A stretch of 64,000 nt of DNA. Origin: a virus. Taxonomy: Duplodnaviria; Caudoviricetes. The translations under genes and the position numbers were made by a program. Below, piece by piece: positions 7,811 through 22,165 of the stretch (position 1 is the stretch's first letter; every line of letters begins with the position of its first letter). The stretch lies in the IMG/VR virus record IMGVR_UViG_3300028888_000119, positions 8,732 through 72,731 of that record, one strand, 5' to 3'. Under the pieces are notes generated by a model. It was not told the DNA's origin and searched no databases. It was given only the letters and a program-made list of their open reading frames with translations.

Positions 7811-7926
7811 CGGACGGAGCAGGACTCGAACCTGCGACTTCGCCCGGCGCCATCTACCAGCATAGCAATCAACCGCTGCATACTCCAGTAGTGCCTGCGA
7901 CCTCTAACCAGCTGAGGTATCCATCC
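7811..7926 (-). ncRNA. tRNA-like RNA 1 with greatly extended anticodon arm (116 nt, no CCA)
   Basis: Acceptor GGATGGA/TCCGTCC, D arm CCTC-AGCTGGTTA-GAGG, T arm GCAGG-TTCGAGT-CCTGC; about 60 nt instead of about 17 in the anticodon region. Confidence 0.8.
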
Positions 7927-16709: not shown

Positions 16710-16814
16710 TGGCTGGGAAGGGATTCGAACCCCTGTCTACCGCAGAGCGCTAACACGAAATAAACACTAAACTCAAAAAATCCCGGTCGCTGCTACCAAT
16801 TGCACCACCCAGCC
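16710..16814 (-). ncRNA. tRNA-like RNA 2 with extended U-rich anticodon arm (105 nt, no CCA)
   Basis: Acceptor GGCTGGG/CCCAGCC (perfect 7 bp), D arm TGC-AATTGGTA-GCA, T arm AGGGG-TTCGAAT-CCCTT, ACCG/CGGT closing a 41-nt insert. Confidence 0.8.
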
Positions 16815-19311: not shown

Positions 19312-19741
19312 TGTAGAAAACGTGTAGGAAATGAATGTCTACATACACGATTTCCTACATTGCGTTCTGCGTGCCCGTGGTGCAGATTTTGGCCATTTTT
19401 GCCCGGTCTGCTGTCTAATATGAGTAAATTTTAGTGTAGGAAATTGTCTACAACCAAAATTTCCTTCATCGCTTCTAGGCTTGTCGGAGGCCGATTTTTC
19501 GATTTTAGTGTAGGAAATTGTCTAATATGAATAAAAATCCTCGCGCGCGTAATATGTGCGCGCGTATATGCGCGTACCTATATATATAGCAAACCTATCT
19601 TTTTCCTATTTTTATTTTTATTCTACACTAAATGCAATAAATACATTATAACTACTAATTAACATCAAACCAGTAACTTACACAATGTAGATAATGCTAC
19701 ATATTGGTGCACAATGTAGATAATTTTTACGAACTCCTACA
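19312..19741. repeat. cluster of 12 TGTAG/CTACA boxes including a 23-bp and a 15-bp direct repeat
   Basis: ATTTTAGTGTAGGAAATTGTCTA at 19428-19450 and 19502-19524; CACAATGTAGATAAT at 19681-19695 and 19710-19724. Confidence 0.85.
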
Positions 19742-20014
19742 TTGCACCATGATAACTCATTGACACCACGACAATTAACCAATGCAAAAAAATCACAAAA
19801 CCAGAAAAGTACCTACTACCGAGACCCTCACGCGCGCGCGAACATCAAAATTTTGAAATAAAAAAAATTTCAAAAACCCACCCGGGCATCCCTTTCCGCG
19901 CCTTGATCTGACCCCTCGCACCCCTTTCAAAAAATCGGCCGGCATACGGCTTCCAGCCTCGTATGTTGTTGATTTTCAAGTAGTTACAAATTTTTGACGG
20001 TCGCAAAAGGTCTG

Positions 20015-20038
20015 AAATGTAACATTTTTGTTACATTT
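20015..20038. repeat. perfect 10-bp inverted repeat (operator-like)
   Basis: AAATGTAACA-TTTT-TGTTACATTT. Confidence 0.8.
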
Positions 20039-20055
20039 TAAAATTTTTTGGCAAC

Positions 20056-20138
20056 TGTGGTGTGGTGTGGTGTGGTCCGGCGCCGTTTTTAAATTTTTTT
20101 AATAATGATCCCGTCACTTTTTAAATTTTTTTAATAAT
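20056..20138. repeat. (TGTGG)4 tandem followed by a 21-bp AT-only direct repeat
   Basis: TGTGG x4 at 20056-20075; TTTTTAAATTTTTTTAATAAT at 20086-20106 and 20118-20138. Confidence 0.8.
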
Positions 20139-20367
20139 CGTGTCCGGATCTGCCGGAACTTAGGTTTTTAAAATAATTTAATAAATCGTAATGTGATATT
20201 AAATTTTTTTAGATTTTGTGCCGGCTGGTTATATTTTAAAATTTTTTAAAAAGTGTGATTCGTTTATTAAAATATTTTATGTTCTTATATGCGTGCGCGC
20301 GCTATAAATAAGGTATATTTTGTAACAAAATTGTCATAAAATTGTAATGAAAATGTAACAAAAACAT

Positions 20368-20398
20368 TTTGATATTTGGAAAATAGTACCTACCTTTG
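20368..20398 (+). promoter_or_regulatory. rightward (early) promoter
   Basis: TTTG at 20368-20371, TACCTTTG at 20391-20398, 19 nt spacer. Confidence 0.8.
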
Positions 20399-20459
20399 TA
20401 ATAGCAAAAGGGGAGAAATAAAGCCCTGGAAGATGTTAAATTTTTAAAATTTAGTTATT

Positions 20460-20858
20460 ATGAAAGCGACAATTTACAAAGGTATCGAAAACATGACAAA
20501 AAAGGAAATCATTTGCGCCCGTGCCACGGAAAAGCGGAATGTTTCCGCGGAACTGGCAAATTTTGCCAACTCGTTAGAGTTTGCCGGAAAACAATTAACT
20601 GCAGTAGGGAGTGCAGCAAGAAACGCGGCAAACGCAACAAAGGGAACTTTTAAAACGTGGCTGCAAGTCGTTTCGGCTTGTTACCCTTACCAAACGGAAA
20701 ACGGGGAACTTTGCACGAAATCGAAAGGGGTGTATAAACTTCGCAAATTGTCCGGCCGTGGTGCAGCCGGGGCCGTGGTTGCTGCATCCGTTAAAAATTA
20801 CATCGATTTCAAAACGGGTCGCGTTTCTGAGTTGGTTACTATCGTAGTGCCCGAATAA
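20460..20858 (+). CDS. basic hypothetical protein, first gene of the rightward block
   Basis: 132 aa, Lys/Arg/Ala-rich, directly after the promoter. Confidence 0.7.
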   Translation: MKATIYKGIENMTKKEIICARATEKRNVSAELANFANSLEFAGKQLTAVGSAARNAANATKGTFKTWLQVVSACYPYQTENGELCTKSKGVYKLRKLSGRGAAGAVVAASVKNYIDFKTGRVSELVTIVVPE

Positions 20859-20865
20859 ATAAGTA

Positions 20866-21355
20866 TATGCCCGTGCACGGGTGAAACTTTGCACGGGTGC
20901 GAATAAATCCGGACTTTTTCGGACTGCAGAAACGCACAAAGGGACGGCCGAACGGCCCGAACGGACCTGCACAAAGCACGACGAAACAAGACGGCCCCGT
21001 TACCGCTATGATGGGGAGATAGGTAAATAGCGGACGGAACTATCGAGGAATGGCGAACTATACCTGAACGGGTACAAGCGTCGGACTGAGACCGCACGAA
21101 CGGGGCGAAAAAATCCCAATTAGTGCCATGACATTGTGTAGGTATGCCGGAGCGGTGGGTGACGCGACGAGGGCAGTAAATCCGAACAATGGATATAAAT
21201 AGCCGAACAAGATTTGGAGCGGAGGGTATCGGGATGAAACGATACTATCCGCTTTTCTTATGGGTGTAAAAGGGCGAGACGCTGGCCGACCGAATCGGCC
21301 TGCACCCACTATGATGTTTAACGAGAAGTTGCGCACGACACGAACGAAGTGCGGA
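20866..21355 (+). ncRNA. candidate large structured non-coding RNA
   Basis: About 490 nt with no credible plus-strand ORF inside a gene-dense block; at least 9 local or long-range helices found by eye (see findings). Confidence 0.55.
21218..21259 (+). terminator. terminator-like hairpin inside the RNA candidate
   Basis: AGCGGA..GTATC / GATAC..TCCGCT stem followed by TTTCTT. Confidence 0.5.
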
Positions 21356-21724: not shown

Positions 21725-21921
21725 ATAGGGGCCAGGCTTGGATTGTGGCGCTCTTGGGCGTGATTGCGCTTGAGGGAGCGGTTACGGCCTACGAGGTCGT
21801 GCGCATTGCGCGGAACGGTTTTGAAGTAAGTTTAACCAAGGAGCAGGCCGACGAGATCGTGGAGGAAGTAGAGGAGGCGAAGGCTGCTGCAATGGAGGAC
21901 ATGAACAATGAGAGCAATTGA
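21721..21921 (+). CDS. small membrane-anchored protein
   Basis: MNRGQAWIVALLGVIALEGAV then an acidic helix; ATGA overlap. Confidence 0.6.
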   Translation: MNRGQAWIVALLGVIALEGAVTAYEVVRIARNGFEVSLTKEQADEIVEEVEEAKAAAMEDMNNESN

Positions 21922-22165
21922 ACGAAAAGCGTTGGCGGCATTCAATGAGTGCAGGCCATTCAAGGAGAGCAACACTGAGGTTGTTGTGACCAAAGAGTCC
22001 GTGTGTGTTTATTTGTTCGGGAACATGATTGTTTGGAAAGACCGGACGACGGGCGAGGTGAGCTACAGCCATTGCGGATGGCACACACCGACGACCGCGT
22101 CCAGGTTGAGGGCGTTCGGAGCAAATGCATACATTAGGAAAGGAACATTAATAATTGAGAAATAG
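21908..22165 (+). CDS. hypothetical phage early protein
   Basis: SNTEV...VYLFGNMI...CGWHTPTTASRL pattern. Confidence 0.7.
   Translation: MRAIERKALAAFNECRPFKESNTEVVVTKESVCVYLFGNMIVWKDRTTGEVSYSHCGWHTPTTASRLRAFGANAYIRKGTLIIEK

Follow-up and report, generated by a model that had tools for sequence, protein, structure and literature searches.

What kind of element occupies the roughly 490 nt that follow the first rightward gene of this phage genome? The genome is the IMG/VR virus record IMGVR_UViG_3300028888_000119, which has a length of 72,731 bp and was rated complete by CheckV. Bases 8732-72731 of the record, i.e., 64,000 nt, were analyzed and are called the window, and all coordinates refer to it unless another locus is named. 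The original prediction for positions 20866-21355 was a new large ornate RNA or an antitermination element. The first of these two options is supported: the element is conserved, covarying, 400-650 nt long, and does not match any Rfam family even at E<=10. The reading preferred here is that of a discrete, highly structured non-coding RNA on the plus strand, which is released from the first early transcript and belongs to a family absent from Rfam, and a probability of about 0.6 is assigned to it.

A conserved non-coding RNA behind a basic protein gene

Up to about 19.3 kb the genes of the window are directed leftward, and from 20.4 kb on they are directed rightward. A spacer of 28% G+C lies between the two groups, and the sign of the GC skew switches near 20,000. 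This divergent spacer (19400-20450) separates the leftward replication genes (helicase, D5-like primase) from the rightward unit, and iteron-like TGTAG boxes had been pointed out at 19312-19741. At the head of the first rightward transcription unit lies the sequence TACCTTTG (20391-20398, plus strand). It fits the motif TAnnTTTG, which we take to be a Bacteroidota-type -7 promoter element, and is thus a candidate promoter box. It is located 69 nt upstream of the ATG of the gene at 20460, and in 12 of 22 loci the homologous gene is also preceded by the motif, at a distance of 60-110 nt. It is by this motif alone that a host would be indicated. Further downstream, a small early ORF (21908-22162) matched Pfam Kyano_Gp96 (E 6.7e-11) and phrog_554, both of which are families without assigned function.

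The gene at 20460-20858 (plus strand) encodes a conserved basic protein of 132 aa with a pI of 9.7, and homology searches and locus comparison showed that it always precedes the RNA. Its homologues form 120 clusters on contigs of 57-87 kb, and one cluster was seen on 68 contigs, which makes the RNA family an abundant one. Pfam and PHROG searches with the protein did not retrieve a family, and a protein atlas search yielded nothing above chance. The AlphaFold2 model had a pLDDT of 88. Foldseek and VIA searches with this model gave no significant fold match (the best Foldseek rows were weak and uS7-like, E 0.5; the best VIA Z was 3.5), and a recognizable RNA-binding fold was absent in both.

About 20 distinct loci were collected from IMG/VR, JGI metagenomes, and public assemblies. 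In every relative recovered the RNA was found on the plus strand directly after this gene, and, vice versa, wherever the contig permitted the check, the RNA was preceded by the gene. At all fetched loci 450-900 nt without a plus-strand gene follow the 132-aa gene. The similarity between the window and its relatives is limited to the RNA stretch; the genes further downstream are unrelated between lineages, while the gene and the RNA are kept. The conserved element ends at about 21261, or at 21308 when its tail is included, and thus does not extend to 21355 as had been assumed. With about 400 nt the RNA of the window is the shortest copy seen, compared to 445-635 nt in the relatives.

A cmscan against Rfam 15 at the gathering score, performed with the whole window and five relatives, did not reveal a match to a large-RNA family. 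Also at E<=10, the region and two relatives did not match ROOL, GOLLD, OLE, raiA, HEARO, or any other large-RNA family. The phage GenBank collection did not contain a DNA match to the stretch, and the pseudoknot pattern described below did not match any of 185,579 GTDB genomes, so that no prophage copy was found there. The RNA represents an uncatalogued family, absent from Rfam, of phages of about 70 kb, which may already sit unnamed in catalogues of viral candidate RNAs (PMC10690425). Several other candidates were rejected. A group I intron disagrees with the end of the 132-aa ORF at a stop codon that is conserved in all relatives, with the unrelated downstream genes, and with the lack of an Rfam match. 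Readings as tmRNA or RNase P RNA had no model match, and the gene context is against them. Two matches to the pattern of the 3' core (L062 and L063) lie in coding DNA and are due to chance, and a scan for the conserved U-run motif returned mostly chance matches.

With table 11, and equally with the reassignments TAG=Q, TGA=W, or TAA=Q, the sequence from 20858 to about 21349 does not contain a credible ORF, as had been noted before for about 490 nt. In 15 of 15 homologues examined stops are present in all six frames, and the longest open run switches its frame between loci. A coding function, either of a minus-strand ORF or of a recoded plus-strand gene, could be suspected from minus-strand ORFs of 99 and 177 aa in the window and from minus-strand products of 142-214 aa that gene callers give for some relatives (ORFs on this strand are listed in L035, L040, L042, and L044). 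However, these ORFs are not conserved as frames, and there is no homologue with a frame open across the region. The long open runs on the minus strand exist because the plus strand is purine-rich and T-poor (A153 G153 C111 T87), the 177-aa ORF lies antisense to the two genes that come next, and the substitutions are compensatory for base pairs. A protein-coding function is thus extremely improbable.

Folding was better than that of shuffled sequences for both strands (z -4.0 for the plus strand, z -3.5 for the minus strand). The good folding of the minus strand, together with the distance of only about 1 kb to the AT-rich divergent region with the GC skew switch, would also agree with an element that acts as DNA, i.e., an origin, a packaging site, or a single-stranded DNA structure. 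But G.U pairs are strongly asymmetric between the strands. The G.U pair in stem S1 of the pseudoknot is invariant in 16 sequences and would be a C.A mismatch on the minus strand, and therefore the plus strand is the RNA strand. Furthermore, a twister fold, which is specific for RNA, is fused to the element in relatives, and a DNA-level element is very improbable. The stretch is a conserved, structured non-coding RNA of the plus strand that is linked to the 132-aa gene.

Architecture of the RNA and its modules

The RNA begins with a stable boundary hairpin, H1, just past the stop codon of the protein gene (20870-20897, plus strand, as all elements described below). The helix 20870-77/20890-97 had been part of the original prediction. 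Of 15 relatives, 14 have a hairpin at the same position; the folding energies range from -19 to -28 kcal/mol, and five stem sequences occur that are unrelated to each other. The H1 of the window is a simple hairpin, for which neither cmscan with Rfam nor ARAGORN gave a tRNA or tRNA-like match. In two lineages, L046 and L032, a tRNA-like element takes the place of the boundary hairpin. In L046 the element (L046:2355-2445) was called by ARAGORN as a tRNA of undetermined type (tRNA-???); it ends exactly where the 5' domain begins, and it shares 45 nt with the 3' end of the protein gene. In L032 the element (L032:2830-2883) matched the mascRNA model with 25.1 bits and E 0.01, under the gathering score.

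Elsewhere in the window, tRNA-shaped elements had also been seen at 7811-7926 and 16710-16814 (minus strand). Both gave full-length matches to the Rfam tRNA model (39.6 and 39.3 bits), but they span 116 and 105 nt, i.e., each contains a long insertion. ARAGORN did not report a tRNA anywhere within the window, including these two places. Another observation concerns the first 100 nt of the RNA, which repeat segments of the 132-aa gene in unchanged order, at H1 and at the P2/P3 junction (window 20700-20726 versus 20880-20897; in L003 gene positions 238-300 versus RNA positions 22-95). The echoed segments are the codons of an invariant G-E-L-C-T motif and of a K-G-T motif. The matches comprise 9-14 exact nt, and the reversed control gave 0-3 such matches per locus. 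The echo may be due to a partial duplication or to a common binding site.

The 5' domain (20905-21037) was defined by comparative pairing counts and a covariance model, R1, which gives 133.7 bits in the window. It is closed by the long-range helix P1 (20914-21/20982-90), in which a conserved U-run pairs with 20982-20990; a local helix TCCGGA/TTCGGA, which had been proposed for this U-run, is thereby replaced. Inside P1 comparative pairing revealed the two-part helix P2 (20925-27/20976-78 and 20934-36/20968-70) and the hairpin P3 (20946-49/20954-57), the stem of which has at least five different sequences. P1 is followed by an H-type pseudoknot, which had been missed before. It consists of the stems S1 (20995-21000/21011-16) and S2 (21003-09/21027-33) and a third loop of 10 nt, which is conserved in sequence (21017-26). 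In the alignment of 16 sequences 89.8% of the proposed pairs were formed, compared to 68.6% after shuffling and 36-46% with slid partners, and in 24 of the 32 pairs both sides had changed.

Three of the previously proposed helices, TGC/GCA, GGCC/GGCC (within GGCCG/CGGCC), and CCGCTAT/ATAGCGG, are supported by the comparative pairing. This was not the case for the long-range helix GCCCCGTT/AACGGGGC (20994-21001/21099-21106), which is perfect only in the window and competes with S1. In relatives the distal complement to 20994-21001 is scattered, whereas the local partner at 21011-21016 forms 7-8 of 8 pairs in 14 of 15 sequences.

The 3' core (21087-21203) was derived from RNAalifold and pairing counts with 14 sequences. 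It contains the helices Ha (21094-97/21123-26) and Hb (21102-04/21115-17), and a nested set that comprises Hf (21132-36/21187-91), Hg (21141-42/21182-83), Hd (21145-48/21172-75), and Hh (21152-54/21163-65). Here 86.1% of the pairs were formed, compared to 67.6% after shuffling and 27-35% with slid partners, and 54 cells had changed on both sides, compared to 17 in shuffles. Pairing in the 5' domain and in the 3' core is thus well above both kinds of control, and the covariation on which the original prediction depended is strong.

The two conserved domains are connected by a short linker domain of 49 nt with one hairpin (21038-21086; hairpin 21061-64/21070-74). In most relatives a middle domain stands at this place, and they have 100-170 nt more between the 5' domain and the 3' core. 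In eight of them the R1 model detected a second, diverged copy of P2/P3 in the middle domain (model positions 16-80, 19-33 bits), e.g., at L054:2627-2691, L044:3133-3198, L040:3249-3313, and L046:2614-2678. An R1 search did not find a second copy in the window. The family is thus modular, and the window copy, which is devoid of the middle module, may be a reduced one.

Distant homologues of the protein, with 33-43% identity, also precede a large structured stretch, which has a length of 470-860 nt. In this distant group 44 of 111 pairs covary, in a set of only four sequences. The R1 model of the 5' domain did not find anything in the distant group. Short motifs are shared with the close group, and L032 has the terminal hairpin and the twister as well; because of these common motifs and the covariation of its own, the distant group is regarded as kin to the close group. 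Two or three direct copies of the 15-nt motif CCAACGGCAGGCGGU are present in L025, L026, L028, and L030 of the distant group (about 320-470 downstream). The same four loci share an invariant AGAGAACCCAC box, which is also present in L002 of the close group. A near-identical inserted hairpin module was found in L003 of the close group (L003:4877-4925) and in L027 of the distant group (about 517-560 downstream), which suggests that RNA modules are exchanged between lineages. A protein-binding array made of repeated CGAAC/AACGG motifs became less likely, as the enrichment after dinucleotide shuffling was modest and uneven, with only 2- to 5-fold for CGAAC.

Probable terminator and candidate twister-type ribozyme at the terminal hairpin

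The RNA body is followed by a terminal hairpin (21209-21261; stem 21216-31/21240-55), which was characterized by covariation and folding and is homologous to stem P1 of the twister ribozymes of relatives. A hairpin of 13 bp had been proposed at 21218-21253; the comparison extended it to 16 bp, with 8 covarying pairs and many G.U pairs. All close relatives carry a terminal hairpin of at least 16 bp. In the window the region has a folding energy of -23.5 kcal/mol (z -5.8), and 7 of the 9 letters at 21253-61 are U, so that the hairpin and its U-tract are a probable intrinsic terminator and the 3' end of the RNA. A consensus terminator scan did not list 21216-21261, because the stem contains an internal mismatch.

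In 11 relatives, i.e., about half, this hairpin corresponds to P1 of a candidate permuted twister ribozyme with near-threshold scores, and a terminator is not present there. In the permuted mapping P1 is formed by the long hairpin, with the U-A site directly 3' of it. The Rfam model Twister-P5 gave 34.5 bits for L022 (E 3.8e-6 in 131 nt) and 31.1 bits for L032, compared to a gathering score of 37.6, and the model twister-P1 gave 32.1 bits for L040, compared to a gathering score of 67.2. All twister matches in relatives are thus below the Rfam gathering scores (clan CL00120; P5 model RF02684). The essential stems P1, P2, and P4 are paired to 100%, 100%, and 89% in the 11 relatives, and P2 and P4 covary. 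In addition, all five pairs proposed for the L4-L1 and L4-L2 pseudoknots are formed in 7 of 7 aligned sequences. Two departures of loop L4 from the Rfam consensus are matched by changes of the partners in L1 and L2, as was read from the Rfam-model alignment against the published pairing scheme (PMC5408937). According to a survey, many imperfections are tolerated in natural twisters, but not in the pseudoknots and the catalytic residues (PMC11662667).

In comparison with type P5 twisters (RF02684; PMC5408937; PMC11662667), the relatives thus share P1, P2, P4, both pseudoknots, a U-A by P1, and most of the conserved loop letters. They differ in their scores (31-34.5 bits versus 37.6), in the two compensated core changes, and in that P1 is a closed hairpin of at least 16 bp. 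The window shares only P1 with this type. It has P1 and a 4-bp P2-like closure but no L4, and instead of the candidate cleavage dinucleotide U-A in UUUAAUG, which is present in the relatives, it has UUUUCUUAU without a U-A site. A twister match was not obtained in the window at E<=10. A model built from the twister sequences of the relatives, R2, scored 45-102 bits in the 11 loci and 22-28 bits in L035 and L036, but only 19.6 bits in the window, and therefore there is no twister in the window.

At the place of the twister core the window has another tail, called type B (21261-21308), which forms a three-way junction with a closing stem (21261-68/21301-08) and two hairpins (21273-76/21280-83 and 21284-89/21295-300). 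This structure is common to the window, L036, L035, L050, and L002, with 18 pairs, of which 5 covary, and its folding energy is -23.7 kcal/mol (z -3.9). The pairings TGGGTGTA/TGCACCCA and GGCCGA/TCGGCC, which had been proposed earlier, turned out to be part of it. In contrast, a CGCAC/GTGCG helix (21332-53) had no counterpart in the relatives read and overlaps the start of the next ORF. Loci with type B tails have good U-tracts after the hairpin, whereas twister loci have only UUU followed by AA. L037 and L003 have other tails again. Up to the tail, the RNAs of L046 and L050 are almost the same, and one has a twister while the other has a type B tail, and therefore the 3' devices are swapped as modules. 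At the terminal hairpin a predicted twister and a predicted terminator thus alternate.

The predicted terminator in the window also raises the possibility that the RNA acts in cis, as a leader that controls the read-through of 21216-21261 into the early operon. It might be an attenuator or a riboswitch-like sensor, or an RNA for processive antitermination, possibly with the 132-aa protein in a role like that of lambda N on nut. The systems of lambda (N/nut) and HK022 (put) have RNA elements of 30-70 nt near the start of the early operon and upstream of a terminator, and a small basic first gene product. The present locus resembles them in the small basic first gene and in the position of the RNA before a predicted terminator, with the RNA placed after the promoter-proximal gene and ahead of the early operon. 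In addition, GGAGCGG occurs upstream, at 21150-56, as a copy similar to the 5' strand of the terminal hairpin. A promoter motif was not seen between 21261 and 21349 in the window, and, if termination at the hairpin is efficient, the downstream early genes therefore need read-through or an unseen promoter.

However, the mutually exclusive pairings from which antitermination had been proposed, e.g., the alternative partner GTGGGTG at 21155, are specific for the window and not conserved. In 11 relatives a ribozyme core is present instead of a U-tract, so that termination control cannot be a function common to the family. A read-through leader also fits poorly because the ribozyme-bearing relatives do not have a terminator to regulate. 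Furthermore, known put or nut elements are much smaller than this RNA with its 400-650 nt and duplicated modules, and homology to these systems was not found. Together, all variants of a cis-acting leader are unlikely. Two interchangeable devices for 3' end formation at the same nucleotide, combined with a structured 5' boundary, fit a discrete released RNA, while they fit a cis antiterminator poorly.

The boundary hairpins, tRNA-like elements, and ribozymes are all processing devices, and the stretch might thus be a cassette that separates, insulates, and stabilizes the mRNAs of the first gene and of the operon, with an RNA body that has no function of its own. But a pseudoknotted domain of 130 nt and a core of 115 nt, which are not needed for processing, have been kept by compensatory changes across about 20 lineages, and the RNA of the distant group is equally structured. 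A mere processing cassette is thus quite improbable.

Proposed release of the RNA and comparison with known RNAs

According to the preferred reading of a discrete released RNA, it would be co-transcribed with the conserved gene of the basic 132-aa protein from the first rightward promoter. A stable hairpin, with a tRNA-like form in some lineages, would bound its 5' end, and the long hairpin its 3' end. In relatives with a twister the transcript would be cut right after this hairpin (UUU^AAUG), and in the window the hairpin with its U-tract would act as an intrinsic terminator. The body would consist of the pseudoknotted 5' domain and the multi-helix 3' core, with inserted or duplicated modules that are specific for certain lineages. 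The released RNA would presumably accumulate early in infection and act in trans.

The leading guess for its action, and the weakest step of the proposal, is that the RNA and the co-encoded basic protein form a ribonucleoprotein. The guess is based on the obligatory linkage to the basic protein, which reaches to the distant homologues, and on the analogy to OLE RNA and the Oap proteins (PMC9723947). An assembly of RNA only, as in ROOL or GOLLD, would be an equally plausible form (PMC12286853). It is conceivable, albeit doubtful, that the RNA and the 132-aa protein, which stay paired down to about 35% protein identity, are a new phage ribonucleoprotein that is made first to take over or disarm a host function, or that the RNA assembles with itself into a higher-order particle like ROOL or GOLLD. 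If one of the two forms were true, it would follow from the exchange of twister, terminator, and other tails in nature that self-cleaving ribozymes in phages have the task of releasing such RNAs. The RNA also offers several handles for its study, i.e., the fixed position at the head of the early operon, the obligatory neighbor protein as candidate partner, and the predicted twister or terminator at the 3' end.

Few bacterial or phage RNAs of such size and complexity are known, and, to our knowledge, ROOL, GOLLD, OLE, and raiA do not have a settled function. With a length of 400-800 nt and numerous helices, multistem junctions, and pseudoknots, ROOL and GOLLD resemble the present RNA, and they do so also in that they are phage-borne, are located near tRNAs or tRNA-like elements, and have no established function (Weinberg et al. 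2017, PMC5737381; cryo-EM PMC12286853). ROOL was first found in rumen data, and both are often carried by phages or prophages (PMC5737381). Nevertheless, the window and two relatives did not share a sequence or structure match with them (cmscan, E<=10), and the present RNA has a fixed position at the head of the early operon, a strict linkage to one protein gene, and, at its 3' end, a predicted ribozyme or terminator.

OLE resembles the present family in its size of about 600 nt, its ornate structure, and a neighboring gene for a small protein, in its case a partner protein, and it works as a ribonucleoprotein in Gram-positive extremophiles and anaerobes (PMC9723947). In contrast to the phage RNA it is a cellular RNA, and binding of the 132-aa protein is suggested only by linkage and charge. 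With regard to the 3' end, a parallel is found in the theta (HDV-like) ribozymes by phage tRNAs, in which, as is predicted for the twister-bearing relatives, a small self-cleaving ribozyme ends a phage non-coding RNA within a longer transcript (Kienbeck et al. 2024, PMC10879173). If the twister releases the RNA, freeing a non-coding RNA from a polycistronic phage transcript would be a concrete biological job for twister ribozymes. The theta ribozymes belong to another ribozyme class, and the RNA that they release is a tRNA and not a large ornate RNA.
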